DNA of 64,000 nucleotides from a virus: IMG/VR virus record IMGVR_UViG_3300012156_000141. One strand, given 5' to 3'. The notes under the pieces are model-generated. The model was given only the letters and a program-made list of their open reading frames with translations. It was not told where the DNA came from and searched no databases. The position numbers and the translations under genes are program-made. Shown one piece after another: positions 4,694 through 46,379 of the stretch (positions within the stretch are counted from its first letter, which is position 1; every line of letters begins with the position of its first letter).

Positions 4694-5821
4694 ATGAAGA
4701 ATTATAAATTTTCGGCAGCTATTGATGTAGATGATGTCCTTTTGGAATGTATTCCATTAGCCTGCCGCTTAGAAAACGAATTGAATAAAAATCAAAATAT
4801 GGATCCTAACAAAATTGTTAGCTGGATTAAACCAGGGACACCTTATGACTCATTATTAAAATATTTTAATGAGCCAGTATTTTATGAACAGCAAAGACCT
4901 TATCCGGGTGCCCAGGAGTTTGTTTGGAAATTAAGCAAGCAAGTAGAGATATTTATCGTAACTGCGGTTGAAGCAAATATCATGGGAATCAGAATGAAGC
5001 AAATCATGAAATACTTCCCGGAGATCAATCCTAAAAATATCATTCCGGCATCAAGAAAGGATGTTATTTCAGTTGACTTTGCCTTTGACGATGGAGCACA
5101 TAATATTTTAGCATCGAAAGCCACTTACCCAGTATTATTCAGGCGAGCTTGGAATCAACATTTAACGGGTATTCTTGCAGCGAATAACTATGATGAATTT
5201 TTAAACATTGTTGACTGCATTCAGAAATCTTACGCTTGTTCTGATATGGATTTTTCAGTACCACATGTATTATCGTTTGTTGGTGGTTCCGGTACCGGCA
5301 AGACAATGATAACAAATAAATTGCTTGAAAGAAATGATTTTGGCAGAGCAAAATCAACAACGACAAGAGCTCAGCGATTAGGAGAGTCATACGATGCTTA
5401 CAATTTTATTTGTGATGAAGAATTTAATCGAATGAAGGAAGATCACCTGTTTGCTGAAACAACGATGTATGCTGGAAATCAGTATGGTCTGGAACTAGCT
5501 GAGATTGATAAGGTTTTAGGCCAGAGAAAACATTGTGTTACAGTTACAGACATTAATGGTGCGATGGCCTTTAAGATGAGATATCCAACAGCTATTATTT
5601 ACATAAAAAGAGATAAAGACAAATTGATTGATGCCCTGATTCAGAGAGTAGAGTCCGGTGAAACAACCAGGCAAGATGTTGTAAACAGAATGGTTTCTCT
5701 TGATGATGAAAAGAAAAATGAAAAAGTCTGTGATTATATTATTAATAATAATGGTACGATTGAACAGGCACTTCACGAAATAGATACAATTCTAAGTTTT
5801 ACTAAGGAGGAACAACTTTGA
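4694..5821 (+). CDS. 5'(3')-deoxyribonucleotidase (HAD, NT5C-like) fused to a guanylate kinase-like domain
   Basis: N-terminal DVDDVL and DDGAHNI motifs. C-terminal GGSGTGKT, STTTRAQR...YNF and YAGNQYG. Confidence 0.8.
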   Translation: MKNYKFSAAIDVDDVLLECIPLACRLENELNKNQNMDPNKIVSWIKPGTPYDSLLKYFNEPVFYEQQRPYPGAQEFVWKLSKQVEIFIVTAVEANIMGIRMKQIMKYFPEINPKNIIPASRKDVISVDFAFDDGAHNILASKATYPVLFRRAWNQHLTGILAANNYDEFLNIVDCIQKSYACSDMDFSVPHVLSFVGGSGTGKTMITNKLLERNDFGRAKSTTTRAQRLGESYDAYNFICDEEFNRMKEDHLFAETTMYAGNQYGLELAEIDKVLGQRKHCVTVTDINGAMAFKMRYPTAIIYIKRDKDKLIDALIQRVESGETTRQDVVNRMVSLDDEKKNEKVCDYIINNNGTIEQALHEIDTILSFTKEEQL

Positions 5822-6227: not shown

Positions 6228-8282
6228 ATGGAATTTATTGAATTAAGAAAAAAGTTGCAGGAGAATTTTAGTGAAATGACAAAGGATGTTTCTCATCTAT
6301 TTGAGGTGGAATTAGATAAGGAGTCTCTGTGGAACTGTTACTTAGACAGCTTTCCTCTTGGTACCAACGATATTTTTAGAGAGAGAAGAGAGCATGACTG
6401 TAGTTGCTGTCGCCAGTTTATCAAGAACATTGGTAATGCTGTTGTAATCAAAGACAACCAAATCAAGACAGTTTGGGACTTTGATACAAATGATGATGTC
6501 TATCAGCCAGTTTTGAGTGCTATGTCTGAGTTTGTCAAATCACATGTTGTAAGTGAAGTGTATGTGAGCAAATTTAGTAAAATCGGGACAAAATGCAATC
6601 TTGAAGTTTTACCTACAGGGAAAACAATTGCCTGGAATCACTTTTATCTGGAACTTCCAGATGAATTTGTGGATAAAACTCATCGTTCAATAGGTGATAT
6701 TCAGGGCAATTTCCGGGATACCAGAAATGTTTTCAAAAGATCTCTTGATGAAATCTCAAAAGACAGCTTACTTACTGTACTTGAACTGATTGCACAAAAC
6801 TCCCTTTATAAGGGAGAAGAGTGGAAAGGCACTCTAAATGAGTTTCTAAACTACAAAAAAGCATATGAAAAGTTAACCTCAGAGGTTGAAAAGTCAAATT
6901 TTGCTTGGGAAAACTCTGTGAAGGTCGGCGGTGCTATTGGCAGAATTCGTAACCATAGTATAGGAACATTACTCACAAACATTAGTGAGGGAATGGATCT
7001 GGAAGGCGCTGTTAAAAAGTATGAGCAAATTGTTGCACCTTCTAATTACAAAAGGCCAAAGGCAATCTTCACAAAAAGAATGCTGGATGAAGCAAAAGAA
7101 ACACTTACTGAATTAGGCTATCTGGATTCTCTGGAACGAAGATATGCTAAAGCAGATGATATTTCTGTCAACAATGTTCTGTTTTTAAACAGAGATGCAG
7201 CCAAAAGGGTTATTGATGCAAATATCTTTGCAGAGATGGAAAGAGATGTTGTGGCTAATCCTAAGAAGTACTCAAAAGTGGAGGAAATCAGTATTGATCA
7301 CTTCATTGAAAAAGTATTGCCTACTGCTAATACACTTGAGGTTTACCTGGAAAATAAGCATTCCAGCCACATGGTATCATTAATTGCTCCAAAGAGAAAA
7401 GAAAGCAAGAGCATGTTTAAATGGAATAATGGGTTTAGTTGGGCTTATTCTGGTAACGTAACAGATTCAATCAAAGAAAGAGTAAAATCAGCTGGAGGAA
7501 GAGTCGATGGCGATTTGAGATTTTCAATTCAGTGGAATGATTCCTCTGAGTGGAGCCGCAATGATCTTGATGCCCATTGTATTGAACCTTCTGGTCGAGA
7601 AATTTATTATTCTCAGTATAGAAAACCAAGTGCTACGCCTAGTGGTGGACAGCTTGATGTTGACATCACAAACCCTGGCAAAGGCATCCCGGCGGTTGAA
7701 AATATCACATGGCTGGATAAGAAAAAAATGAAACCGGGTGTTTATAAATTCTTTGTTCATCAGTTTGCCAATAGAGGAGGCAGAGACGGCTTCCGAGCAG
7801 AAATTGAATTTGATGGAAAAATCTATTCATTTGATTACGACAAAGAATTGAGACAAAAGGAGAATGTTGTTGTAGCTGAAGTCGTATTAAGCTCTGATGG
7901 AACTTTTTCAATCAATGAGAAATTACCATCAAATGTATCCAGTCAGGAGATTTGGAATCTGAATACAAATCAGTTTGTCCCTGTCTCTGTGATGATGTAT
8001 TCACCAAACTATTGGGACGATCAGAAAGGCATTGGTAACAAACACTACTTTTTCATGTTAAAGGGCTGTGAAAATCCTGAGAATCCCAATGGATTTTACA
8101 ATGAATTTTTGAACCAGGAACTGGATAAGCATAAAAGAGTGTGTGAGGCATTGGGATCAAAGATGAGAGTCGAAAAATGCGATGATCAGTTATCTGGCCT
8201 CGGGTTTTCATCAACTCAAAGAAATGAGCTTTTAGTAAAAGTAATTGGCTCGACAGAGCGAGTGATAAAAGTTAAATTTTAA
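6228..8282 (+). CDS. Conserved phage-type protein with a YfaP/DUF2135-like domain
   Basis: 684 aa. HDCSCCRQF motif and LRFSIQWN..DLDAHCIEP..GQLDVDIT..VENITW module. Family recalled from phage genomes, not searched. Confidence 0.6.
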   Translation: MEFIELRKKLQENFSEMTKDVSHLFEVELDKESLWNCYLDSFPLGTNDIFRERREHDCSCCRQFIKNIGNAVVIKDNQIKTVWDFDTNDDVYQPVLSAMSEFVKSHVVSEVYVSKFSKIGTKCNLEVLPTGKTIAWNHFYLELPDEFVDKTHRSIGDIQGNFRDTRNVFKRSLDEISKDSLLTVLELIAQNSLYKGEEWKGTLNEFLNYKKAYEKLTSEVEKSNFAWENSVKVGGAIGRIRNHSIGTLLTNISEGMDLEGAVKKYEQIVAPSNYKRPKAIFTKRMLDEAKETLTELGYLDSLERRYAKADDISVNNVLFLNRDAAKRVIDANIFAEMERDVVANPKKYSKVEEISIDHFIEKVLPTANTLEVYLENKHSSHMVSLIAPKRKESKSMFKWNNGFSWAYSGNVTDSIKERVKSAGGRVDGDLRFSIQWNDSSEWSRNDLDAHCIEPSGREIYYSQYRKPSATPSGGQLDVDITNPGKGIPAVENITWLDKKKMKPGVYKFFVHQFANRGGRDGFRAEIEFDGKIYSFDYDKELRQKENVVVAEVVLSSDGTFSINEKLPSNVSSQEIWNLNTNQFVPVSVMMYSPNYWDDQKGIGNKHYFFMLKGCENPENPNGFYNEFLNQELDKHKRVCEALGSKMRVEKCDDQLSGLGFSSTQRNELLVKVIGSTERVIKVKF

Positions 8283-8350
8283 ATAAAAACTAATTAGCCA
8301 GGTTGGTACAATAAGGTTTCAACCAGCTACATCGAAAAAGGAGAAAAATA

Positions 8351-8731
8351 ATGGAAAAGATGTTTGAATTAGCAACAAGAAAGCGATTAAGATTTCCACA
8401 TAAAGGCCAGTCTACTGTTGAAGACTTATGGGAATTGCCAGTAAAAGAACTGGATAATATTTACAAAGTATTAAATTCAAAGAAAAAGCAGAACAGCGAA
8501 GACAGCCTGCTTAAGACAGTGTCAAAGACAGCTGAAGAAGAAATTTTAGAGCTTCAGATCGAAATTGTAAAAAACATTGTATCTACAAAGATTGAAGAAG
8601 CTAAGCAGAAGACTGAAGCGGCTGAGAAGAAAACCAGACAGGATAAGATCAAGGAAATTCTGGCCTCTCGAAATGAGGAAAAATATCTGGCAATGTCAGA
8701 TGAGGAACTCCAGAAATTGTTAGAAGAGTAA
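8351..8731 (+). CDS. Conserved phage-type coiled-coil protein
   Basis: MFELATRKRLRF...TVEDLWELP N-terminus, recalled as the usual partner of the upstream gene. Confidence 0.6.
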   Translation: MEKMFELATRKRLRFPHKGQSTVEDLWELPVKELDNIYKVLNSKKKQNSEDSLLKTVSKTAEEEILELQIEIVKNIVSTKIEEAKQKTEAAEKKTRQDKIKEILASRNEEKYLAMSDEELQKLLEE

Positions 8732-8759
8732 AAAAAAAGAGGCTAGGCCTCTTTTTTTT
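8730..8759 (+). terminator. Intrinsic terminator
   Basis: A-tract-GAGGC-TAG-GCCTC-T-tract. Confidence 0.8.
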
Positions 8760-8867
8760 AAAATAATTCTAAGAATTTTTTGAAAAATATATTTATGTTA
8801 AATCTTTTCACTACATAATAACTTTGAAATTAAGATATTAGGAGAACATTAGAAGAAAGGAAATAGT

Positions 8868-9671
8868 ATGAAGAAACTAAAAGTACTCTTGAAAAGAGCC
8901 GGTGTTATTCTAAAAGTACTCTTTAAAAGGGCCTGTGTTATTCTGTTTTTGTTAGTAGCTTGGTGGCAATTGTCAAAGAACATGAATCCCTTATTTGTAC
9001 CAAGTCCCAAAAGTGTTTATGAGGGAATTTTAGCTTTGATAGAAAATAAGCAATTGATTATGGGAACTTATTATTCGTTTTATCGAGTGGCTATAGCATC
9101 GATATTATCAGGAATTGTTTCAGTGATATTAGGATTATTGATTTATTCTTTTAAATTTGTAAGAACGACCATGTATCCTATCATAAATTCAATGAGATAT
9201 ATCCCAGTCACTGCATTCTATCCACTATTAATTATGTGGTGCGGTATTGGAGAACAGATGAAAATTATTTTTTTATTTATAGTTATATTTGTTTACATGA
9301 TGCCCAGTATGTACAACATCTTCTCTGAAATAAGTGAAGATTTAATAGATACTGGATATACGATAGGAATGAATAAATCTCAAGTAATATATATGGTTTT
9401 GTTACCTTCATCATTACCAGCAATAGTGCAGACATTCATTATGCTGTTTGCTGTTGGATTTACATATATCCCATTTGTTGAAAGCATTAATGCCAAATAC
9501 GGATTAGGATACGTAATCCAACAATCATCATCTCGTGGACGTACCGATTTAGTTTTCGTAGGTATTGTTGCAATTATGTTTATCAGCTTTTTGTTTGATA
9601 ATGGAGCAAGATACCTAGCTGGAAAAATATTCCCATGGAGGACAAACAATGATCAGTCTAAATGGTCTTAG
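8868..9671 (+). CDS. ABC transporter permease (NitT/TauT/SsuC type)
   Basis: Several TM helices, RYIPVTAFYPLLIMWCGIGE, EAA-like loop DLIDTGYTIG, GLGYVI. Confidence 0.9.
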   Translation: MKKLKVLLKRAGVILKVLFKRACVILFLLVAWWQLSKNMNPLFVPSPKSVYEGILALIENKQLIMGTYYSFYRVAIASILSGIVSVILGLLIYSFKFVRTTMYPIINSMRYIPVTAFYPLLIMWCGIGEQMKIIFLFIVIFVYMMPSMYNIFSEISEDLIDTGYTIGMNKSQVIYMVLLPSSLPAIVQTFIMLFAVGFTYIPFVESINAKYGLGYVIQQSSSRGRTDLVFVGIVAIMFISFLFDNGARYLAGKIFPWRTNNDQSKWS

Positions 9672-10263
9672 TATTGGATATAAAAAGAATCAGCCAATAT
9701 TAACAGGAGTAAACTATACTTTTGAAAATAATAAAATTTATGGGATTTTAGGAGCATCTGGTTGTGGAAAAACAACTTTATTAAGAACTATATCGGGATT
9801 GACTCAGCCTCTGGATGGAACGGTTATAAATGCTGAAAATATAAAACCTTATATGATGCATCAAAAATATACTAGCTTTGATTGGCTTAATTGTTTAAAC
9901 AATATATTGATTGCAGAAAAAGTATTAAAAACAGGAAAATTGACTGAAGCTCATGCAAGATATTCATTAAGTTGTGTTGACTTAGAAGCCCATGAGAAAA
10001 AGTATCCACATCAGTTATCCGGAGGCCAAAGACAACGTCTTGCATTAGCAAGGACATTATTTGTTAAACCTGAAATTGTATTAATGGATGAGCCGTTATC
10101 GGCATTAGATGAGGTTACCCGGACACAAATGCAGGACCTAATCATGAAAGTTCATAAGGAAACTCAAAACACAATTATTATGGTAACCCATAGTCAACGT
10201 GAAGCACAAAAAATGTGTGATGTAATCATAGAACTAGAACAGTTTAAGAGAAAGGAAAATTAA
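9649..10263 (+). CDS. ABC transporter ATP-binding protein
   Basis: GASGCGKT, LSGGQRQR, VLMDEP, H-loop MVTH. Confidence 0.95.
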   Translation: MISLNGLSIGYKKNQPILTGVNYTFENNKIYGILGASGCGKTTLLRTISGLTQPLDGTVINAENIKPYMMHQKYTSFDWLNCLNNILIAEKVLKTGKLTEAHARYSLSCVDLEAHEKKYPHQLSGGQRQRLALARTLFVKPEIVLMDEPLSALDEVTRTQMQDLIMKVHKETQNTIIMVTHSQREAQKMCDVIIELEQFKRKEN

Positions 10264-10266
10264 AAA

Positions 10267-10824
10267 ATGGCAAAGGGAATTTTTAATAAATTTTTTGAAG
10301 AAGTAGAAACGCAAGGTAGATTAAATGACGCATTCGAACCAACATATGACGTTTATGAAACACCTCTTACAGAAAGTGTTTCAGCAGCTGTACCAGAGAC
10401 AATGACAGAGAATATTATTGAAGATATCTATAGAGATAATGGATTATCGGATAGATCGAGATCCATTTACATGGTAGATATCTATATGGCCACATTACCT
10501 CCTGAAACACCTACAGAAGTTAAGAGTGTAACGGTTAAGAACATTTTAAAAGCTTCTGGAATCACAGAAGACGAAGTCGGAATTGATGCATTAAAGAGAG
10601 TTGAAGTTCTTGATGATGTTAAAAGAAAAGTTGTAGGGAGCAATGAGGATAAGATTAGTGAAGCCTGTATCCGGATTGAGGCTTTGAAAGCTCAAATCGA
10701 AATGCTGAATACAGAGATTTATGAGGCAAAAAACGATATGGCTCAGTATTCAGAAACTATTGATAGTGAAATTAAAAAAATCAACTCATTGGAAAATTTT
10801 ATTAAATTAGGTGGAGGTAAATAA
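10267..10824 (+). CDS. Hypothetical coiled-coil protein in the ABC/PspA operon
   Basis: 185 aa ORF coupled to its neighbours, with a C-terminal heptad pattern. Confidence 0.7.
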   Translation: MAKGIFNKFFEEVETQGRLNDAFEPTYDVYETPLTESVSAAVPETMTENIIEDIYRDNGLSDRSRSIYMVDIYMATLPPETPTEVKSVTVKNILKASGITEDEVGIDALKRVEVLDDVKRKVVGSNEDKISEACIRIEALKAQIEMLNTEIYEAKNDMAQYSETIDSEIKKINSLENFIKLGGGK

Positions 10825-10825
10825 T

Positions 10826-11578
10826 ATGACATTAGGTGTGTTTTTAGCAGCAGTTGCATTAGGTTTATCTGGATTTGCATTAGTTCTTTTTCCAGAAGTG
10901 CGAAAAAAAGTGGGAATCTTAACAAGAGGAACATTAAATGTATTTATTGAGGATAAAGCAAAGACTCCGGAGGGAGCAAAAGCTATTTTTCAACAGGCAA
11001 TTGATATTTCACAAGATAAATATGCAAAAGCCAGTAATTTGTTGAGACAACGGGCTGGAGAGTTAGAAACAGCAAAACAAGACTTATTAATTACCCAAAA
11101 GGAACTAAAGGAGTTAGAAACTACTTGTGAAAGACTTGTTCAAAACGGTAAATACGAAGAAGCCACTCTCATTGCTACTCAGAGAGAGGAAACGTTAGTG
11201 GATTTAGATCGACAGACAAAACTAATTGAAAGCTTAGGCCCAGTTGTTGAAGAATGTAAAGCTATTGCTAATCATCAGGAACGGAATTTGCGTGAACTAA
11301 AAGTTAAAAAGAAACAAATCATAACAGATCTTGAAATGAATAAGCAAATGACATCGATGTATGACGATTTAGATGAACTTAAAAAAGTGAGTCAGGTTGA
11401 TAAACTATTGGATAGTGTCAATGATGGCCATAAGGAATCACGTCAGCAAGCAATTGGCGCTAAAGTCCTTCATGAAAACAAACTGGAGACTAAGGTTGAC
11501 AGAGTTAAATTGAAGATGAAGGATGTCAAGAACAGTGATTATATTGAAGAACTGAAGAAAAAATACGAAAAAAAATAA
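10826..11578 (+). CDS. PspA/IM30-family protein with N-terminal TM anchor
   Basis: Long amphipathic helical protein (AIFQQAID...ELETAKQDL...YEEATLIA). ATG at 10826 follows GGAGG. Confidence 0.65.
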   Translation: MTLGVFLAAVALGLSGFALVLFPEVRKKVGILTRGTLNVFIEDKAKTPEGAKAIFQQAIDISQDKYAKASNLLRQRAGELETAKQDLLITQKELKELETTCERLVQNGKYEEATLIATQREETLVDLDRQTKLIESLGPVVEECKAIANHQERNLRELKVKKKQIITDLEMNKQMTSMYDDLDELKKVSQVDKLLDSVNDGHKESRQQAIGAKVLHENKLETKVDRVKLKMKDVKNSDYIEELKKKYEKK

Positions 11579-11640
11579 GTTGTAATGATTTTTTTCTTAC
11601 ATATTATTGATATCTAAAGAAAGAAAAGGAGAAAGAAATA

Positions 11641-13236
11641 ATGAAAAGATTTCGATTAACAAAGTTATCAAAGATAATTTTATTTGTATTGGTTGTATGT
11701 GCAGTCATTGGTGGTAGTGTTTTTGCAGTAAAGAAAGGTCTAATTAAGACAAAGTCGACAGCAAGAAACACAACTGAGACAACCATTGCAAAAACGAACG
11801 AAGCCAAAACAGAGTCAAAGGAAAATTCACCCGCAGCAGATAATAAAAACAATACTGCTGCAAGCACAAATACCATTAACTTATCGCTCGATGAGTGGAT
11901 TGGTTGGAAGTCTATAATTGATGCAAATGGTGGACTTACGACGAAAGCTGATTCTATTTATGGAAAGCTTGGGTTGAATGTCAATATTCATGTAATCAAT
12001 GATGCCATTCAGAGTTCAAATGCTCTTATTAAGGGCGACCTTGATGCAGCAGGATATACAATTAACCGAGTCGCTTTTTTATCAAAGAAGTTTACCGACT
12101 CTAAGGTTAATGTGGTTATGCCGTATATTACAAACTACTCAAATGGTGGTGATGGTATTATTGCAAATACTAAGTATACAACCGTTGAGTCATTGGTAGA
12201 TGCCAAGATTGGTATACCAGAGTTCTCAGAAGCTCACTCACTTGTTGTATGGTTTGTTAATCAGTCTGATTTGGCTGAAGAACAGAAGAACAAAATCATT
12301 GATAATTTAATTTGTTTCGAAACGCCGGATGAAGCAGCAAAGGCATTCTTTGCTGGACAGATTGATGTTGCGGCGACATGGCAGCCATATTTAAGTCAGG
12401 CACAGGATACATCAAATTGTCATGTGTTATTCAGTACAGCAAACTCAACAAAACTTATTATGGATGGTATTTTATTCAGAGAGGATTTTGCTCAGAAAAA
12501 TCCAGAAACTGTTCAGAGGTTTATTGATGGCGCACTTCAGGCTATGGATTTGTATGATAAAGAGTTTGATGCAATCCGTGAGGTTATGCCAATGTTTGCT
12601 GGTGAGAATGATGATTCGATTAGAGATATGACTGTAGATGCTGCTTTAGCAGATTGGAATAATAATATGACTACTCTTAAAGAAGAGGCACCAGTTGTAT
12701 TTACAGAAATGTGTGGTGTATGGGAATCTATTGGTGAAACAATTAATAGGGATATGAATTTATTTGATGCTTCCTATATGAGTGCTTTATCTGGAACCTA
12801 CCAAACCTTAGCTGCTAGTGAAGCAAAAGTAAATAGTCCCAAGATTACTGAAGAAAATCGCCAGTCTGTTATTGATGCTGAAGCCTTATTATCAAAATCG
12901 GCTACTGTAAACTTTGTCCCAAACACATGTAACTTTATGGATAATGCAGAAGCGGCAGCAGCACTTGATGATTTTGTTGCCATTGCGAAAACTCTTGATG
13001 GAACGGTTATTCAGTTAGAGGGAAATGTTGCATCAGATAATACTACTGAGGCTGAAAGGATTTTGTCAGAGCAGAGAGCTGAAACGGTTAAAAAATACCT
13101 TATTGTAAATGGTATTAATGCAAATCGTATCTTGACAATTGGTAATGGTGGAGATAAACCTGTAGATACTAATGATACCAGTGAAGGATGTCTCAAAAAT
13201 AGAAGAACAGATATTTATTTTAAAATTGTTGAATAA
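11641..13236 (+). CDS. NMT1/SsuA-like substrate-binding protein fused to a C-terminal OmpA-like peptidoglycan-binding domain
   Basis: N-terminal TM. SBP motifs DEWIGW and SNGGDGII. OmpA motifs LEGNVAS..LSEQRAETVKKYL..GINANRI..NRRTDI. Confidence 0.85.
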   Translation: MKRFRLTKLSKIILFVLVVCAVIGGSVFAVKKGLIKTKSTARNTTETTIAKTNEAKTESKENSPAADNKNNTAASTNTINLSLDEWIGWKSIIDANGGLTTKADSIYGKLGLNVNIHVINDAIQSSNALIKGDLDAAGYTINRVAFLSKKFTDSKVNVVMPYITNYSNGGDGIIANTKYTTVESLVDAKIGIPEFSEAHSLVVWFVNQSDLAEEQKNKIIDNLICFETPDEAAKAFFAGQIDVAATWQPYLSQAQDTSNCHVLFSTANSTKLIMDGILFREDFAQKNPETVQRFIDGALQAMDLYDKEFDAIREVMPMFAGENDDSIRDMTVDAALADWNNNMTTLKEEAPVVFTEMCGVWESIGETINRDMNLFDASYMSALSGTYQTLAASEAKVNSPKITEENRQSVIDAEALLSKSATVNFVPNTCNFMDNAEAAAALDDFVAIAKTLDGTVIQLEGNVASDNTTEAERILSEQRAETVKKYLIVNGINANRILTIGNGGDKPVDTNDTSEGCLKNRRTDIYFKIVE

Positions 13237-31346: not shown

Positions 31347-32350
31347 TCTATGCTTTTAGAGTTGTATTTTCCTTTTTCGTATGCATTCTTACCGGTTAAT
31401 ACTAACTGATCTACTAAATTAACGATTGGCTCTTTATCATCTTGCACAGAAATACCTTTGATTAAATTTTCATATGTTTCACATTTTTCCTTGACGGTTT
31501 GGATAGAACCATATTCTCTTTCTAGTTCATCATAAGCATCCACCTTAATCTGATATTTGTTGAAAAACTCTTTATTTAAATGGCTTACTTCATTTTTGAT
31601 TGTCTGTTTCATTCCAAGGTTTAAATTCTCGTATTTATTTTCATAATACATAGCTTTTAAATTAGCATCTTTAAAAAGTTCATTTGTTCGTTGTCGATAT
31701 TCTTGTATGCATTCAGAATCTTTAGGTGGAGGAAGATCCCGCTGAATGGTTGCATTAAGTGAAGCATAATATCTTTTTATATCCTGATGCCTAGCTGTTG
31801 AATTTTTGATACCTCGATTTAAATTATGTTCCTTTTTCATTAATTTTCCATATGAATCCTGGAGTTCTATCATTTTTTGCCGACTCCTTACATAATAACG
31901 TGCATTTAGATTTCCTTTGTCATCAATTGGGACAACAATAGCATGACAATGAACATTTCCCTCTTCATCACCATGATATACAACAGAAAGTACATTGTCA
32001 CCATATTTAGGATTAGCATTAAATTCCTTCCTTAACCAATCAACATTATCTTTCTTCCATTTTTCTATGTCAACATTTTCTCTATCTTCTCGCGAAAAAG
32101 TTGTAATTACCTCAAAAGCATAAACCGCATTTGAACGTATTTTTTTATCAGAGCCATAACCCAGTGTTTTAGTATGTTCTTCAAATGCTTCTTTATAAGT
32201 TTTTCCATTCAAAGAAACTAATTCTTCATTTAAGTGCTCTTTATCTGGATCGGCATTCAATACATCAGCTTTTCGATAATTATGATTGTATTTACCAGCA
32301 AGCTTATTGAAACTTTTTACTTTTTCCAATGTCATAAAACAATATCCCAT
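31337..32350 (-). CDS. MOB_V (Pre/MobV) relaxase
   Basis: N-terminal NHNYR, NAVYAFEVITTFS, VVYHGDEEGNVHCHAIVVP (H-x-DE...H-x-H), QDSYG, GLKRG-like NLNRGIK. Confidence 0.85.
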   Translation of the reverse strand: MGYCFMTLEKVKSFNKLAGKYNHNYRKADVLNADPDKEHLNEELVSLNGKTYKEAFEEHTKTLGYGSDKKIRSNAVYAFEVITTFSREDRENVDIEKWKKDNVDWLRKEFNANPKYGDNVLSVVYHGDEEGNVHCHAIVVPIDDKGNLNARYYVRSRQKMIELQDSYGKLMKKEHNLNRGIKNSTARHQDIKRYYASLNATIQRDLPPPKDSECIQEYRQRTNELFKDANLKAMYYENKYENLNLGMKQTIKNEVSHLNKEFFNKYQIKVDAYDELEREYGSIQTVKEKCETYENLIKGISVQDDKEPIVNLVDQLVLTGKNAYEKGKYNSKSIEEK

Positions 32351-39042: not shown

Positions 39043-39750
39043 ATGTATTACAAGATTTTAAAGAAAGATATGTTGCACTATGATATGCAGTATAAGGAAG
39101 GTTTGAATGTTGATATAAAACCTTTTGATTCCAGTCCTTGTTGTGGAGGCGGCTTATTTTTTTCAGACGTAAAAAACATATTAGGTTTTTGCAGCTATGG
39201 TGATTTGATTGCAGAGGTTACGGTGCCCGAGGGAGAAATGGTTATTTCAGTAGGAAATAAGTATAAAGCGAACAAAATCAATTTATCGAATATCCGAAAT
39301 TTGTGGGATGTTGAAGTATTTAAGGAACTCGTTAAGCAAGGGCTCGATATTCATGCAGATAATGACTTGGCTTTACTATTGGTTGCAGGAAATGGGTTCT
39401 TGGATGTAGTCAAATACTTAGTAGAACAGGGCGCATATATTCATGCGGATAATGAATATCCTTTGCAAAGGGCTGCATGTAATGGACATTTGAATGTAGT
39501 CAAATATTTGATAGAGCAGGGAGCCGATATTCATGCGGACAACGAGCTTGCTTTGCGATGGGCCGCAGAAAATGGACGTTTGAAAATTGTTAAATATTTA
39601 GTAGATCAGGGTGCTAATATTCATGCGGATAATGATTCTACTTTAAGATGGACCGCGGAAAATGGTCATTTGGAAGTCGTTGAATATTTGGAGAATCAAG
39701 TCAAAAAAACATCAAACATTAATGATACATACATTCCGTTGAATATATAA
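39043..39750 (+). CDS. Ankyrin-repeat protein with an N-terminal YYKI..QYKEGLN..GGLFF domain
   Basis: Four repeats of the type L..A..NG.L.VVKYL.EQGA.IHADN. Confidence 0.9.
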   Translation: MYYKILKKDMLHYDMQYKEGLNVDIKPFDSSPCCGGGLFFSDVKNILGFCSYGDLIAEVTVPEGEMVISVGNKYKANKINLSNIRNLWDVEVFKELVKQGLDIHADNDLALLLVAGNGFLDVVKYLVEQGAYIHADNEYPLQRAACNGHLNVVKYLIEQGADIHADNELALRWAAENGRLKIVKYLVDQGANIHADNDSTLRWTAENGHLEVVEYLENQVKKTSNINDTYIPLNI

Positions 39751-39896: not shown

Positions 39897-41021
39897 ATGA
39901 AAAATAAAGTTTTAATATTGGCATTAAGCGGTATGATGCTTGGCACTATGAGCATTCCAATATTTGCAGCAGAACCCGTACAAGATGTGCGTATTTCAAT
40001 TGCACCAGATAATGATGATGAGTTCAGTCCAGGTGAAATTGAAGCCGGCTTTGAACCCACCACTGATTCAAGTCAGTATTATGTAGATGAATATGATACA
40101 TCGAGTTCAAGCTACACACCAAAGAAATCCTATACTTATACAATAGACATTCTTCCAGAAGATGGATATAAATTTGATTCGAATGCTAAAGTCGTTGTAT
40201 ATGGAGCAACTGAAGTAACTGTGAAATCCCGATCAACAAGTAAGATCGTAATTAAAGCTAAGACATTTCCATTTTATGTTTTGGATGAACCAACAAATAT
40301 TGTAATTGATGAATCGGAAAAGGAAGCTACTTGGGATAAAGTGGAATATGCAAAAAAATACAATGTAGTTGTTCGTTATACAAATAAAGATGGCGATGAA
40401 AGAGAAACAAAAAAAACAGTAACTAAAACGGAAATTGATTTGTCTGGCTATATTGGAAAGTATGAAGATGTATCAATATCTGTACAGGCAGTAAAAGGTA
40501 CTACAGATGGAGATAAATTTATTAGCAATTCAGATTACATTTTATCAACAGATGGAAGTATAGATAGCGATCGGTCAGATGATGAGTATACATTTTCTAT
40601 TCCTACATCAGCTTCTGATGGTAGCACTGTAACTGATTCATCTTCTAGCTCTAGTTCATCAGGTCCTTCTAACTCATCCTCTTCTGCTTTAAGTGAAGGC
40701 TGGAGCGGAAGCGGAGATAATTGGTATTATACAAAAGATGGCAAGAAAGTTACCGGATGGCTTGGTATTGGTGGTGAGTGGTACTTATTAAACAGCAATG
40801 GCCTCATGAAGTTTGGCTGGCAGCAGGTTGATGGCAATTGGTATTTTCTAAATACTGTTCATGATGGTGCTTTTGGAAAGATGCTTAGCGGCTGGCAATT
40901 TATTAATAACAAATGGTATTACTTAAATGAAATACATGATGGTACCTTCGGCGCTATGTATGCAAACAGAACAACTCCAGATGGATATAAAGTCGGTTCC
41001 GATGGAGTATGGATTCAGTAA
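39897..41021 (+). CDS. Secreted protein with C-terminal cell-wall-binding (YG/GW) repeats
   Basis: Signal peptide, Ser-rich linker, GW..GGEWYLLN..GWQQVDGNWYFL..TPDGYKVGSDGVWIQ. Confidence 0.85.
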   Translation: MKNKVLILALSGMMLGTMSIPIFAAEPVQDVRISIAPDNDDEFSPGEIEAGFEPTTDSSQYYVDEYDTSSSSYTPKKSYTYTIDILPEDGYKFDSNAKVVVYGATEVTVKSRSTSKIVIKAKTFPFYVLDEPTNIVIDESEKEATWDKVEYAKKYNVVVRYTNKDGDERETKKTVTKTEIDLSGYIGKYEDVSISVQAVKGTTDGDKFISNSDYILSTDGSIDSDRSDDEYTFSIPTSASDGSTVTDSSSSSSSSGPSNSSSSALSEGWSGSGDNWYYTKDGKKVTGWLGIGGEWYLLNSNGLMKFGWQQVDGNWYFLNTVHDGAFGKMLSGWQFINNKWYYLNEIHDGTFGAMYANRTTPDGYKVGSDGVWIQ

Positions 41022-41234
41022 ATCATATTAATAAAGACATGAGTAGTAAAAACTATTCGTGTTTTTTAAATTCTCACATTATATAAGTAAATTTGAAAAG
41101 AGGAAATTGCATGAAAGAGTGGAAGCTTATTGTATAATAATTATTTTTATCAGATGCAATACAGGTTGTTAAACAAATAACATAAAATAAACCAAATATA
41201 AAAAATCCTACATACTAAAAATAAACGGGAGGGT

Positions 41235-42239
41235 ATGATGGGATTTTTTTTATGCGCAAGTAAAATAGGTCGAGTTTGGTATCCATTAAAAGCAAATTCA
41301 TCTAAAGAAATGATCAATCAAATAGAGCAGGATGCAAACCATCAAATAGGCTATTTAGTAAGCGGAATTCATCATTTTAATATACTGCAGGAAATGAATA
41401 TTGATACTAGTCGAATTGGAATGATTAATGTATTAGCTCCATGCAAAGTGTATAACGAATTACTTAGCAAAGGAGTTTCCTTTTATATAATTGATGATTT
41501 TAAAATACTAAAGCAATTTGTAGAACAAAACAATTCTAATATCTGCATCGGAATACGCTTGTCTCTTTCTTCAATATTCAAAGAACATATTACGCATTTA
41601 GGAGTAACTAGAGAAGAGTGTAAAGAGATGATTGCTTATTTGAAGTCCCAGAAGTGTAATTATGGACTGACTATATATATTGAAGATAATTATAAAGATA
41701 AAAGATATCAAAAAATAATATTTGATTATATACTAGCTAATTTTAGAGAAGTACCTTTTTTATCTATTGGTGGAATAACATCTGATTTTGAAGTACTAAA
41801 ATATCTAAAAGGCACTTACAAAGGAGAAATTAATTTAGAAATTGGAGATGAACTAATTAAAGATAAACGAAACTGCGATACAGAAATAATTAGAAAAAAG
41901 ATAGTTAATGATTCAGTCACAATTACTATCAATAAAGGAATTTATACGGGTTTTTTTGATGTCTTATTAAAAAATAGAGAATTTGTTATGAAGATAAAAG
42001 ATCGTCCCAATTGTGTCTTGTGTAATAAAAAAACAAAAGACAGAGATATCCTTGTTGAAGTTTTTGGAGGCTCCGGAAATGCAGATGATCATATTGGAAA
42101 GTTTTATACCAATGAAGAAACTCTTTTCCATTTAACAGATGGGAACATATTAACGATTCAAAATACAGGATCCTATTTTGATGAATTGACAACAAAATAT
42201 GGGTACGAATTAGAAAAAGGAGAGTCCTATGAAATTTAA
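41235..42239 (+). CDS. Divergent PLP-dependent fold-III (Orn/DAP/Arg decarboxylase-like) enzyme
   Basis: WYPLKAN (PLP lysine), IGIRL, SIGG, LEIG (EPGR-like), VFGGSGNADD (GPTCD-like without Cys), NTGSY. Confidence 0.7.
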   Translation: MMGFFLCASKIGRVWYPLKANSSKEMINQIEQDANHQIGYLVSGIHHFNILQEMNIDTSRIGMINVLAPCKVYNELLSKGVSFYIIDDFKILKQFVEQNNSNICIGIRLSLSSIFKEHITHLGVTREECKEMIAYLKSQKCNYGLTIYIEDNYKDKRYQKIIFDYILANFREVPFLSIGGITSDFEVLKYLKGTYKGEINLEIGDELIKDKRNCDTEIIRKKIVNDSVTITINKGIYTGFFDVLLKNREFVMKIKDRPNCVLCNKKTKDRDILVEVFGGSGNADDHIGKFYTNEETLFHLTDGNILTIQNTGSYFDELTTKYGYELEKGESYEI

Positions 42240-43101
42240 ACTATTTAGTGTTATCGTTGGCAATGAAGCTTGTATTGCAAGTTGCCCATTCTGTGTATCC
42301 GGTATTAAACCAGATACTGAGAATATGAGATGCCCAGATATTAACTGGCGTAATTTTAAGATTGCTTGCAATTTAGCAAATCGAAGTAATGTAGACACTG
42401 TTATGCTTACCAGCAGAGGAGAACCTTTGCTATTTCCAAAACAAATTACAGAATACCTTGAACGCCTGGAAATATACAATTTTCCATTTATTGAACTTCA
42501 AACAAATGGTATCTTATTCGGAAATAAACCAGATTATTATAAGGCATATTTAAAAAAGTGGTATAAACTTGGCCTAACAACAATCTGTTTATCTGTTGTA
42601 AGCAATCACTATGATCGTAATAAAAAAATATACACACCAAATGGTAAATATATCGATTTAAAAGCTGTAATTAAATATTTACATACATTTGGCTTTTCTA
42701 TACGACTTACCTGCGTTATGTGTTCTGGAATGATGGATAGTATTCAGAATGTGGAAGAATTTATCCTATATGCTAAAGCAAATAATGTAGAGCAAGTTAC
42801 TCTTAGACCAGTAAATGATGAATTCAGACGACAATCCGCTAAGAGATGGATAGAGGAAAACAGACTTAGCGAAGAAGAAAAAGAATCAATTAGTCAATAT
42901 TTGGAAAAAGAAGGAACCAGATTATTAGAACTTGATAGGCTTGGTGCAGTATATGATGTTTATGGACAAAACGTGATGTTATCAGTTCCATTAAATAAAG
43001 ATACTAGAGACATGGACCCGGAGAATGGAAGACAATTAATTTTCTTTCAAGATGGACATTTAAAATATGAATGGGAAAAAGAGGGAGGTATCTTACTGTG
43101 A
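42229..43101 (+). CDS. Radical SAM enzyme
   Basis: CIASCPFC (CxxxCxxC), LTSRGEPLL, IELQTNG. No obvious SPASM domain. Confidence 0.9.
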   Translation: MKFKLFSVIVGNEACIASCPFCVSGIKPDTENMRCPDINWRNFKIACNLANRSNVDTVMLTSRGEPLLFPKQITEYLERLEIYNFPFIELQTNGILFGNKPDYYKAYLKKWYKLGLTTICLSVVSNHYDRNKKIYTPNGKYIDLKAVIKYLHTFGFSIRLTCVMCSGMMDSIQNVEEFILYAKANNVEQVTLRPVNDEFRRQSAKRWIEENRLSEEEKESISQYLEKEGTRLLELDRLGAVYDVYGQNVMLSVPLNKDTRDMDPENGRQLIFFQDGHLKYEWEKEGGILL

Positions 43102-44093
43102 AAGTATATACAAAACAATCTGACCGAACATTATGTAATGAGCTGCAGGCTAAACTTGCAGAAATTAGATCTAAAAGAGCATTTAGTCCCGAACAATATA
43201 TAAAAGAAAAAACAGAAATACTAAATAAATACATGAAAAAATGTCATTTATCCAGCTGCGTGGTTGCTGTAAGTGGAGGCATTGACTCTGCAGTTGTATT
43301 GGCTCTGGTAGTTAAAGCAGCAGCAGAACCAGACTCTTATATTCATAATGTAATGCCACTATTATTACCATGCAGAGAAAATAGTGGTGTTGTAAATCAA
43401 TCAGATGCCACAACCAGAGGAATGGAATTATGCCAGGCTTTAAATGTTAAACCATATGAGATTGAAATGAATTTGATTGTAAAGGCTATTCAAGACTCAG
43501 TATGCAATGCTCTTGATATTGAGGGCGGAGACTGGGCTATCGGACAATTAGTTCCTTATAGCAGGACACCGGTATTGTTTTTCACAACTTCTTTATTAAC
43601 CCAGGAAAATGCTTCAGCTGTTATTTGTGGAACAACTAATTTAGACGAAGGTGGATACTTAGGTTATGTGGGAAAAGCATCAGATGGAATAGTCGATTTA
43701 CAATTAATCTCTGATATTCATAAATCAGAAGTATTTGAGGTGGCAAAATGTTTAAATATTCCACAATCGATTCTTCAAGTTACGCCAGCTGGAGATATGT
43801 ATGATAATCGTGTGGACGAAGAAGTATTCGGTGCATCCTATGATTTTGTCGAGCTGTATTTAAATTATCTAAATATGAATGATGAAGAAAAAAATATTCT
43901 TGAAAGTGATTTGAGTGAATACGCAATGGAACAATTTAAGTTTTATCAAACCAATATTGAAGAATTGCATAAATATAATGCTCATAAGTATCTTTCAAAA
44001 TCTCCAGCAATCCATCTGGATTTGTATGATAGTGGGATAAAGGGTGGATGGGAGAACTATCGTGATACAATCATAAGATTTTTAGGTGAATAA
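43098..44093 (+). CDS. nadE: NH3-dependent NAD+ synthetase-like protein
   Basis: VAVSGGIDSAV, GTTNLDE..GY.GKASDG, DIHKSEV, PAGDM..DEE. GTG start overlaps the radical SAM stop. Confidence 0.85.
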   Translation: MKVYTKQSDRTLCNELQAKLAEIRSKRAFSPEQYIKEKTEILNKYMKKCHLSSCVVAVSGGIDSAVVLALVVKAAAEPDSYIHNVMPLLLPCRENSGVVNQSDATTRGMELCQALNVKPYEIEMNLIVKAIQDSVCNALDIEGGDWAIGQLVPYSRTPVLFFTTSLLTQENASAVICGTTNLDEGGYLGYVGKASDGIVDLQLISDIHKSEVFEVAKCLNIPQSILQVTPAGDMYDNRVDEEVFGASYDFVELYLNYLNMNDEEKNILESDLSEYAMEQFKFYQTNIEELHKYNAHKYLSKSPAIHLDLYDSGIKGGWENYRDTIIRFLGE

Positions 44094-45411
44094 CATGGAT
44101 TTATTTGAAGTTCTAAAATTAAAACCAGATTGTACAAGAGAAGATGTTGATAAATCCTATTTAAAATCAGAAAAAAACGCAGAGATAGAGTTTGCATGGA
44201 AGGTACTTAGAGATCCATATTACCGTTTGGTATACAGAAAATACAAGTCTATGGAAATTATAAATAAAGCAGGCTTTTTTAAAGATAATTTGGATATGGA
44301 TGATAAAGACTTTTATAAGTTGAACCTTTTGACGACTCCATGCAAAAAACTAATTAAAAAGAAAAATCCGGTAGTCCTACTTTCTACCGGAGGTTTCTTT
44401 CCAATACATAAAGGTCACATTCACATGATGGAGCTGGCAAGAGAGTCGATTGAAAAAGAAGGCTATTCCGTTGTAGGTGGATATTTATCACCATCACATG
44501 ACAGTTACATGATAACAAAACCATATTGTAATCAAAATCTCTCTGAAAGAATATATAAGTGTAAAGAAGTTTTAGAAGATCATCCTTGGCTACAGATAGA
44601 TTCATTTGAATCTCAATATATGAGAACCTATGTTAATTTTACAGAAATCATTGAACGCCTGGAACAATACCTAAAAAAACATTACGATAATAATATTTCG
44701 GTAGCCTACGTCTTTGGCTCTGACAATGCTGGATTTGCTTATTGTTTTGAAGATAAGGGATTAGCGGTTTGCATTGAACGTGAAAACTATCAGGAAGAAT
44801 ATAATAAAATGAAAGCAAAAATTATTTCACGGAATGTTGTTTTTGTTAATAATAAATCGGATAAAGCAAAACTTTGTTCACGGGATATTAGAAAACAGAT
44901 GCTATTAAGAAAGGAGCCGCCATCAGGTGGTTTGTTTATGATTCGAGATGAAGGGATTGAACCATTAAAACATTTATCAAAGGTAGCAAAAGAAGAAGTA
45001 CATCAGGCTCAAACAATTTTCATCAAACAACTATCGCAGCTATTTAAAGAGACTTTATATGCAGATGTTAAGATAGTGAAAGTGTCTGATCAAATAAAAT
45101 ATGCAGATGAAAGGCTGAAAGATAAAAACACAATTAGTCTGGATAGCTATTATAACGGCACAAATAATTTAAGAGTTAGTCGTTTATTTCACCTATCTGA
45201 TATTCAGATAAAGTATGATAAGATGGTAACATCAGAAAAAAATGATGTATCACAGATTATAAGTAGGGTCAAAGCCGGTCGATACATCTTAGTAGATGAT
45301 GATAGTGTATCCGGAAATACTATAAGAAGCATAAAAGAACAATTACCAAAAGGTGTAGAAATCGAAGATATATTCTTGCTATCATCATACATGAAAAAAA
45401 AAACCATTTGA
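44086..45411 (+). CDS. J-like domain, NMN/NaMN adenylyltransferase and PRTase-like fusion, interrupted by an A10 tract
   Basis: DLFEVLKL..AWKVLRDP (J-like, no HPD), STGGFFPIHKGH, VVGGYLSPSHDSY, FGSDN, ILVDDDSVSGNT. Confidence 0.8.
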   Translation: MNNMDLFEVLKLKPDCTREDVDKSYLKSEKNAEIEFAWKVLRDPYYRLVYRKYKSMEIINKAGFFKDNLDMDDKDFYKLNLLTTPCKKLIKKKNPVVLLSTGGFFPIHKGHIHMMELARESIEKEGYSVVGGYLSPSHDSYMITKPYCNQNLSERIYKCKEVLEDHPWLQIDSFESQYMRTYVNFTEIIERLEQYLKKHYDNNISVAYVFGSDNAGFAYCFEDKGLAVCIERENYQEEYNKMKAKIISRNVVFVNNKSDKAKLCSRDIRKQMLLRKEPPSGGLFMIRDEGIEPLKHLSKVAKEEVHQAQTIFIKQLSQLFKETLYADVKIVKVSDQIKYADERLKDKNTISLDSYYNGTNNLRVSRLFHLSDIQIKYDKMVTSEKNDVSQIISRVKAGRYILVDDDSVSGNTIRSIKEQLPKGVEIEDIFLLSSYMKKKTI

Positions 45412-45730
45412 TGTAGTTGATTGTAGAGACTTTATAATTGGTGCAGAAAATGCCGGGCTTATGGTATCTGATTTTAAAAATCAAATTATTAGGGTGCCAT
45501 ACACCCTACCATATGTGTCTTTAGTAACAAAAGCAAGTATTTTATATGAAAAAAAAAAAGAATTCGCAATTAATGTATGGAATTTAAATAAAAACTTTTA
45601 TCAAACATTAGGCATTATCTATTTAAAAGATGTTAATTATGATTTTCAATATTTGATGAGCTTAATAGGATTTAAAGGAAACGCGTTGCTAGAAGATATA
45701 TGTGATTGGCATATTAAAAATTTACAATAA
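45404..45730 (+). pseudogene. Out-of-frame C-terminal continuation of the NMNAT/PRTase fusion
   Basis: The +1 frame is open from 45404 (PFDVVDCRDFIIGAENAGLMV...) to 45730. Removing one A from A10 (45394-45403) fuses the two parts. Confidence 0.75.
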
Positions 45731-45754
45731 AAAACAGGAAGAATCCTGTTTTTT
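45729..45754. terminator. Bidirectional terminator
   Basis: AAAAACAGGA-AGAA-TCCTGTTTTT. Confidence 0.8.
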
Positions 45755-45761
45755 GTTTTTA

Positions 45762-46320: not shown

Positions 46321-46379
46321 GTCCAAAATATAATATCTGACATACTAATAATAAACTATATTTCATTTGGAGGTATTTG

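Follow-up and report, generated by a model that had tools for sequence, protein, structure and literature searches.

Background

The routes by which bacteria make NAD are considered completely known. In the Preiss-Handler pathway (PncB, NadD, NadE) a base is coupled to phosphoribosyl pyrophosphate (PRPP), the mononucleotide is adenylylated and an ATP-dependent amidation follows. The cassette analyzed here appears to share this logic while using a different set of proteins. It lies on the plus strand (41235-45730) of IMG/VR record IMGVR_UViG_3300012156_000141, a stretch of 64,000 nucleotides hereafter called the window. Its four genes, g1 to g4, encode a pyridoxal phosphate (PLP) protein, a radical S-adenosylmethionine (SAM) enzyme, a NadE-like enzyme and a fusion between a nicotinamide mononucleotide adenylyltransferase (NMNAT) and a phosphoribosyltransferase (PRTase, or PRT)-like domain. 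They constitute a real, widely conserved, uncharacterized and horizontally mobile cassette. We consider the chances about even that it is the Firmicute form of an NAD-homeostasis module feeding the NAD pool, and this is the reading we favor.

The Preiss-Handler genes pncB, nadE and nadD are found co-located with the module, as is nrtR, which encodes the repressor of NAD metabolism. The module nevertheless differs from that pathway in carrying a divergent, type I PRTase-like domain where PncB, NadV and NadC are type II enzymes, in the fusion of this domain to an NMNAT of the eukaryotic type, in an obligatory radical SAM enzyme or 2-oxoglutarate (2OG)-dependent oxygenase, and in a NadE-like protein that falls below the equivalog cut-offs. 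To our knowledge, every known pyridine phosphoribosyltransferase is of type II. A second relative is the Francisella route, in which the NMN synthetase NadE* is followed by NadM: the NadE of F. tularensis reportedly amidates nicotinic acid mononucleotide before adenylylation, an NMN-accepting NMNAT acting next. The best solved relative of the g3 family profile is this Francisella NadE (3fiu, E 3e-27). However, the route includes neither a PRT fusion nor an oxidative partner.

The three NARP systems resemble the proposed module in that each rebuilds NAD with a compact and mobile set of genes: NARP1 (Adps and Namat), NARP2 (Nampt and NMNAT) and NARP3 (PnuC and NadR). Adps has a PRPP-synthetase/type I PRT-like fold, while NARP2 and NARP3 include an NMNAT activity. 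None of them has a NadE, a radical SAM enzyme, a 2OG oxygenase, a PLP enzyme or an NMNAT-PRT fusion, their starting compounds are nicotinamide, ADP-ribose or nicotinamide riboside rather than a carboxylate, and the module, unlike them, is nearly absent from phage collections. Fusions of an NMNAT to an enzyme that makes or handles a mononucleotide are known within NAD regulons from NadR and NadM-Nudix. There, however, an NMNAT belonging to the archaeal/NadR type is joined to a ribosylnicotinamide kinase or to a Nudix hydrolase.

A chemical precedent comes from outside NAD metabolism. In the ArcS/RaSEA system lysine donates a nitrogen and RaSEA then removes the lysine skeleton, leaving -C(=NH)NH2, with neither NH4+ nor glutamine being used (PMC11298593). 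A close paralogue of RaSEA is the oxidative partner in the module loci of the candidate phyla radiation (CPR). The module differs in having no ArcS or TGT homologue and in its proposed substrate, a pyridine nucleotide instead of a tRNA; moreover, g2 of the window does not belong to the RaSEA family. Full-text literature searches found no published description of the cluster. A module that is conserved in many phyla and linked to NrtR, combining a eukaryote-type NMNAT fused to a type I PRTase-like domain with a constant oxidative partner, challenges the picture of a completed NAD map. Its existence implies that NAD metabolism has a branch still to be described or that there is a new cofactor related to NAD.

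Conservation of the cassette and the underlying triad

A scan of 185,579 species genomes was followed by a hidden Markov model (HMM) census of 78 loci carrying g4. The initial annotation of the window, made from its letters alone, had proposed that the four genes act together and had left their association in other genomes to be verified. They do co-occur: the order g1-g2-g3-g4 is found in 28 Firmicute-type loci (numbered within L001-L030, plus L050), and the same arrangement was seen in the neighborhoods of three g4 homologues that were looked up. In 17 of these 28 loci the four genes are followed by three others (g5 to g7) encoding a GNAT protein, a second, SPASM/YydG-like radical SAM protein and a protein of 617 amino acids (aa). 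The GNAT domain is fused to g4 in metagenome-assembled genomes (MAGs) of Bacilli, Mollicutes and Gastranaerophilales. The 617-aa protein g7 (11307-13157 in L001), which matches no Pfam, NCBIfam, PADLOC or PHROG model, has homologues in 20 loci and, in this long form of the cluster, always follows the GNAT and second radical SAM genes.

The census also uncovered an arrangement that had escaped the initial annotation. Of the 78 loci, 72 have g3 and 73 have exactly one of three unrelated oxidative partners; two partners occur together in none. These partners are the radical SAM enzyme g2, a 2OG-Fe(II) oxygenase (PF13640) and a RaSEA-like radical SAM protein (TIGR01210, with scores of 184-196 bits against a cut-off of 212). 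The oxygenase is the partner in 34 loci, often as a C-terminal fusion to the NadE-like protein that recurs in many phyla; the RaSEA-like protein is the partner in five CPR-type loci. In Legionella and Myxococcota, NadE, oxygenase, NMNAT and PRT domains are joined in a single polypeptide. Because nearly every locus carries one partner and never two, the conserved unit is not the four-gene operon as such but a triad composed of a NadE-like enzyme, one C-H-activating enzyme and the NMNAT-PRT protein, with interchangeable radical or oxidative enzymes and a distribution over more than ten phyla. The partner is the radical SAM enzyme in anaerobes, the 2OG oxygenase in aerobes and the RaSEA-like protein in CPR.

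Besides Firmicutes, g3 and g4 are found together in Elusimicrobia, several CPR lineages, Armatimonadota, Legionella, Myxococcota, Bdellovibrionota, Leptospira, Saprospiraceae, Obscuribacterales, Streptomyces and plasmids of Variovorax. Accessory genes recurrently associated with the triad encode an aspartate-type racemase, a cyanophycin-synthetase-like ATP-grasp protein and a methyltransferase-like protein. The Legionella fusion (L055, L070 and L059, from L. santicrucis, L. longbeachae and L. shakespearei, respectively) is a polypeptide of about 1114 aa with NadE-like, 2OG oxygenase, NMNAT and PRT parts, and is preceded by the ATP-grasp and methyltransferase-like genes.

Proteins encoded by the cassette

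The g4 protein is composed of a J-like helical segment (aa 1 to about 90), an NMNAT domain (aa ~95-275) and a PRTase-like C-terminal third. Its middle domain had been likened to the NMNATs of eukaryotes, and the family profile bears this out, matching plant and human enzymes with E values from 3e-23 to 9e-14. It carries the motifs GGFFPIHKGH, GGYLSPSHDSY and CSRDIRK, and scores 28.9 bits against CTP_transf_like (PF01467, cut-off 21) and 42.3 bits against TIGR00482, under the 112.45 cut-off of the latter. Judged from its sequence, this domain is a nucleotidyltransferase of the NMNAT/NadD family.

The type I PRPP loop VDDDSVSGNT, from which the C-terminal domain had originally been assigned, was read essentially correctly. 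The loop, as VDDD..(S/T)G.T, is invariant in the 43 sequences of the g4 family. The predicted structure (predicted local distance difference test, pLDDT, 95) has almost only type I PRTases as neighbors: the best 20 or so identified with VIA-align are type I PRTases or PRPP synthetase, orotate PRTases ranking first. A search of the Protein Data Bank (PDB) with the HMM of the domain retrieved APRT at E 0.02, and Foldseek searches of the model against PDB and Swiss-Prot gave weak matches only, none at E<1e-3. The model thus suggests a divergent type I PRTase-like domain. The N-terminal segment fared less well. Its helices recall those of a J domain, but the case is weak: the score against DnaJ (PF00226; 16.1 bits, cut-off 27.8, E 0.013) lies below the cut-off and the HPD tripeptide is absent from all 22 aligned members. 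The segment is moreover missing from many g4 proteins outside Firmicutes.

The NadE identity of g3 was confirmed by its SGGIDS PP-loop and by scores of 107.8 bits against PF02540 (cut-off 21) and 96.2 bits against TIGR00552 (cut-off 63.65). The family profile matches 16 solved NadE structures at E<1e-10. However, g3 lies under the NadE equivalog cut-offs, the best score being 112 bits against the 255 required by NF010587. Passing such a cut-off would imply the same substrate, nicotinic acid adenine dinucleotide (NaAD), and NH3 as nitrogen donor.

As anticipated, g2 is a radical SAM protein, with a CX3CX2C cluster motif (C15-x3-C19-x2-C22) whose three cysteines are invariant in the family, and with a partial TIM barrel fold. 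Its Pfam Radical_SAM score (28.9 bits) is slightly under the cut-off of 29.5. Sequence identity of 62-68% across Clostridia, Bacilli and Elusimicrobia represents an unusually high conservation. In Foldseek searches the predicted structure (pLDDT 86) is nearest to MoaA (template modeling score, TM, 0.70; E 1e-11), followed by viperins (TM 0.63-0.65). The family-invariant residues of both g2 and g3 are all intact in the window.

The g1 protein of the window has no Pfam match on its own, while its homologues carry PF02784. The best match of the family profile is the lysine/ornithine decarboxylase 5gjm (E 5e-13), followed by ornithine (ODC), arginine and diaminopimelate (DAP) decarboxylases. The PLP lysine K19 (YPLKAN), the SIGG phosphate loop and an E-x-G motif are conserved. 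On sequence grounds, the g1 family belongs to the fold-III PLP decarboxylases (Orn/Lys/Arg/DAP, PF02784). The absence of the usual decarboxylase cysteine, already remarked upon in the initial annotation, is a family-wide trait: GPxC(D/E), which holds the equivalent of ODC C360, is replaced by GGS(S/G)xxxD, seen as GGS(S/G)(D/N)(S/A)xD in all four aligned members. A comparison with SbzP, put forward earlier for the chemistry of this enzyme, found no support and was dropped because g1 is an ODC-like fold-III protein and no other link to SbzP exists.

Genomic links to NAD metabolism

The surroundings of the cluster strongly support the connection to NAD metabolism that had been proposed from the domains. 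In 14 loci, representing at least 11 organisms and at least five phyla, a gene for NrtR (Nudix plus NrtR_WHD, identified by HMM) is found no more than 10 kb away from the cluster. In L003 (Clostridiales bacterium GWE2_32_10) pncB is coupled to the cluster at the level of translation, its first codon overlapping the stop of g4, and nadE-nrtR comes next. Islands of NAD genes also surround other copies: in a Saccharibacteria genome the order is glutamine-dependent NadE, NrtR, racemase, g3-oxygenase and g4, with NadD and a nicotinate PRTase nearby, and in L. interrogans NrtR stands directly ahead of a three-gene cluster. Chromosomal clusters in an NrtR context are found in CPR, Elusimicrobia and Leptospira. 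In L003 an 18-bp palindrome, TTATTAA-N4-RTAATAA, is located at 4866-4883 and 11373-11390, in the promoter regions of the cassette and of nadE-nrtR. It is a candidate NrtR operator, although its pattern was derived post hoc from the same two sites, which biases any statistic calculated for it. Neither an NrtR gene nor a site of this type was found near the operon in the window.

The g4 gene is the sole member of the NMNAT family in 13 of 30 cluster-bearing genomes. The significance of this depends on the lineage. An argument from a missing gene had to be rejected for the gut Clostridia, since in the order of G006 (201 small gut Clostridia genomes) NadD is found in merely 64 genomes, an NMNAT of the NadM/NadR type in 43 and g4 in three; a g4-only genome means little against this baseline. 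About half of the genomes of 0.9-2 Mb in this order have no recognizable NMNAT. The CPR genomes are more informative. Four of them (G003, G024, G025 and G026) carry NadA, NadC and a second NadE and have g4 in place of NadD as their only NMNAT, whereas the two NadA-positive CPR genomes devoid of g4 in a sample of 201 both have NadD. With the caution due to such small numbers (four genomes against two), this points to a displacement of NadD by the NMNAT of g4 in CPR. In some of these genomes the module would make up for the missing NadD, and predictions of vitamin B3 auxotrophy for gut Clostridia and Bacilli would be affected.

Proposed function

A Preiss-Handler-like set of domains with one added radical step, under NAD-type regulation, leads us to favor an NAD-supplying module. 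Its core would be an assembly line for a pyridine dinucleotide, of which we infer the substrates, the order of steps and the product. The type I PRTase-like domain would couple a carboxylated pyridine-type base to PRPP and the fused NMNAT would adenylylate the mononucleotide. The NadE-like enzyme would then convert the carboxylate into a carboxamide, a step to which the C-H-activating reaction of the obligatory radical or oxidative enzyme (here g2) would be coupled. In the version we prefer, the NadE-like enzyme would ligate the amine of an amino acid, in a manner comparable to ArgG and PurC, and the radical enzyme would subsequently strip the carbon skeleton as RaSEA does with preQ0-lysine, so that the amide nitrogen remains. 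The donor might be supplied by the ODC-like g1, or by the aspartate racemase in other phyla.

This role of the oxidative partner, supplying or unmasking the amide nitrogen of an amino-acid donor, is suggested by its fusion to the NadE-like enzyme, by the RaSEA paralogue of CPR and by the accessory proteins that handle amino acids. It is drawn by analogy, as pure speculation, and should be considered unlikely as it stands. The broader proposal, that the triad represents an unrecognized route to NAD in which a type I PRTase makes the mononucleotide, the amide nitrogen derives from an amino acid and the skeleton is removed oxidatively, is slightly less doubtful but still rather improbable. Such a route would correspond, within NAD metabolism, to ArcS/RaSEA and to peptide alpha-amidation. 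In either case a set of three or four genes constitutes a compact target for biochemistry.

Several observations weigh against a simple role in NAD supply. The structural matches of the PRT domain are modest (Z 5.5-7.1 with VIA-align), and no PF00156 match was found in g4. The presence of PncB in the same operon in L003 speaks against a plain use of nicotinate by the PRT domain. Canonical NadD and NadE accompany the module in most of the genomes that bear it, so that it is not merely a replacement, and the low baseline of NadD among the gut Clostridia as well as the small CPR sample (four genomes against two) limit what can be drawn from genomes in which g4 is the only NMNAT. The distribution is patchy: two clades were sampled, and each gave three positives among 201 genomes. 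Finally, MoaA and viperin, the nearest relatives of g2, both alter the nucleotide itself, and the neighbors of the tailoring type (GNAT, the second SPASM/YydG-like radical SAM protein, the methyltransferase-like protein, the cyanophycin-synthetase-like ATP-grasp protein and the 617-aa protein) point to a specialized metabolite.

Alternatively, as the initial annotation had also proposed, the module might build a non-canonical relative of NAD, with a modified ring or ribose or with another carboxylated heterocycle in the dinucleotide, to serve as cofactor, signal or antimetabolite. The oxidative enzyme would then modify the nucleotide, as befits relatives of MoaA and viperin, which transform free nucleotides, while g1 and the accessory proteins would make or tailor the base. 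Coexistence with complete canonical pathways fits this possibility, as do tailoring genes that vary by lineage, a patchy distribution borne by mobile genetic elements, a pncB gene that would be redundant in the same operon if nicotinate were the substrate of the PRT domain, and a PRT domain that is type I-like, in contrast to all known pyridine PRTases, with orotate PRTases as its closest structural neighbors. However, an NrtR gene next to the cluster in at least five phyla is what one would expect of NAD supply rather than of a secondary metabolite. The NMNAT domain closely resembles genuine NMNATs, and g4 is left as the sole NMNAT of CPR genomes that have NadA, NadC and NadE. Moreover, the three-gene form is kept in CPR genomes of 1 Mb, which are unlikely hosts of secondary metabolism. 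We therefore view a product of this kind as an unlikely outcome. A protein modification resembling that of diphthamide, suggested by the combination of J-like domain, radical SAM enzyme, amidase and methyltransferase, was also considered and set aside because the NMNAT and NrtR context points to a nucleotide substrate.

Carriage by mobile elements and the question of counter-defense

Copies of the cluster are carried by plasmids or chromids of Variovorax, Streptomyces and Leptospira. The only clear viral occurrence found is L088 (IMGVR_UViG_3300010403_000705, 433 kb), where g4, g3, a 2OG oxygenase and an AAA_33 kinase-like gene occupy 7887-13221. A tblastn search with an intact g4 homologue as query identified no g4 among 50,697 phage records, and only two real matches were obtained among the 2.9 million viral contigs of IMG/VR. 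The label "Uroviricota" attached to clusters of the ESM Atlas reduces to two giant viral-type contigs of IMG/VR. Scans of g1 to g7 with PADLOC and PHROGs gave nothing diagnostic, with no PADLOC or anti-defense match.

Since copies occur on plasmids, on chromids and on a giant viral contig, one may ask whether mobile elements employ the module as a buffer against NAD depletion. The initial annotation had suggested, as one of two possibilities, that the operon restores NAD+ after host defense is triggered. In this interpretation the cluster would be a counter-defense device dedicated to mobile elements and would rebuild NAD+ once the NADases of Thoeris, SIR2, DSR or TIR systems have fired upon entry of a plasmid or phage. 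Its location on the conjugative element of the window and on the replicons and viral-type contig mentioned above is compatible with such a role. L001 has serine recombinases and Hachiman genes as neighbors, the copy in L. interrogans is found next to TIR, Abi and HNH genes, and NrtR reportedly responds to ADP-ribose, the product of NADases. On the other hand, the lack of PADLOC matches, the near-absence from phages, an enzyme set unlike those of NARP1-3 and the many chromosomal, NrtR-linked copies accompanied by housekeeping NAD genes leave the specific suggestion unsupported. NADases furthermore release nicotinamide, for which a NadE step would be needless, and the window copy is frameshifted. 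A dedicated anti-defense function therefore appears very improbable, and supply of the general NAD pool is still the preferred interpretation.

State of the window copy

In the window, g4 is interrupted by an A10 homopolymer (45394-45403) which shifts the reading frame and leads to a stop codon at 45409-45411. The 5' part (44086-45411) encodes 441 aa from GTG 44086 or 438 aa from ATG 44095. The 3' part, in the +1 frame (45410-45730, 106 aa), includes the second half of the PRTase-like domain and a C-terminal helical extension. With A9 instead of A10 the gene would encode a protein of about 547 aa, in agreement with about 290 intact homologues of 546-587 aa. The piece in the +1 frame matches the conserved family C-terminus position by position (139 bits, HMM positions 447-558) and retains the family-invariant DxRDF, R..PY.LPYV and W residues. 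The frameshift thus cuts off half of the PRTase-like domain together with invariant residues, but since these are intact on both sides of A10, any lesion must be recent. Among the 31 homopolymer runs of the window only this one coincides with a frame break, which makes general assembly noise unlikely. It may correspond to a single-base error, to phase variation or to a site of transcriptional slippage. Runs of A9 or A10 permit transcriptional or replicative slippage, and slippage on A10 could restore some full-length g4.

A second long homopolymer, A11 (45549-45559), lies within the 3' part; it is in frame (EKKKE) and slippage-prone. The g4 genes of L060, L066, L071, L072 and G190 (C22:16155-17762) are likewise split into two open reading frames (ORFs) or contain stops, which reflects either recurrent inactivation or assembly errors of the MAGs.

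The g1 gene shows peculiarities of its own, absent from the initial annotation. Its N-terminus is about 17-20 residues shorter than that of its homologues, and an aspartate replaces the arginine or lysine of the E-x-G-[RK] motif. In ODC-type enzymes this basic residue binds the PLP phosphate. A search for a remnant of the missing N-terminus upstream of the gene (41040-41234) revealed only a vague in-frame likeness interrupted by stops, and was not retained.

It might be asked whether the copy in the window is a remnant that has lost its function and is in decay, the frameshift and the short g1 being real lesions in cargo free of selection. The loss of invariant residues of the PRT domain, the truncated g1 with its aspartate at the phosphate-binding position, the split g4 genes elsewhere and the absence from the window of g5-g7, which are present in 17 loci, would all agree with decay. 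However, the invariant residues of g2, g3 and both pieces of g4 are intact, so that any break is recent, and 11 other loci likewise hold only g1 to g4. A single-base homopolymer error would also explain the break, though no other run in the window displays one, and slippage at A9/A10 offers a further way out. Taken together, we give decay somewhat less than an even chance; the window copy is probably impaired, yet not eroded.

Layout and setting of the cassette

The four coupled ORFs on the plus strand, with overlapping or abutting junctions, are arranged as described in the initial annotation, between an upstream motif and a terminator that are both present. A putative control region (41128-41218), recognized by reading the sequence and by a promoter scan, includes an extended -10-like element TGTATAAT at about 41131-41138, some 95 nt upstream of g1, and ends with the motif ACATACTAA (41210-41218). 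This motif is recurrent in the element, with three copies in the window against 0.87 expected; the others are found 5' of a gene for a 786-aa protein at 46377 and, on the minus strand, at 32169. The g1 gene (41235-42239, 334 aa) is preceded by a GGGAGGG Shine-Dalgarno sequence (41227-41233). The start of g2 (42229-43101, 290 aa) lies 11 nt upstream of the g1 stop. The reading frame of g3 extends from 43071 to 44093, and its probable start, GTG 43098, overlaps the g2 stop (GTGA) and has the Shine-Dalgarno sequence GAGGGAGG ahead of it. For g4, ATG 44095 is one base past the g3 stop and is preceded by AGGTGA. The unit ends with a hairpin and T run resembling an intrinsic terminator (45726-45757).

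The window, with a GC content of about 32%, is part of a large conjugative element of the Firmicute type of which the cassette is cargo. Its other genes encode a VirD4-type coupling protein, a VirB4/TraG-like ATPase, a lysozyme/NlpC-P60 wall hydrolase, a sortase, a thioester-domain adhesin, a sigma factor and a PolIII alpha subunit. Megablast searches of plasmid and phage collections found no near-identical record of the operon, and the database copy of the window g4 sits on a contig of 246.5 kb. Directly upstream of the cassette are genes for an ankyrin-repeat protein (39043-39750) and a choline-binding-repeat protein (39897-41021), the sortase and adhesin genes being located further upstream.

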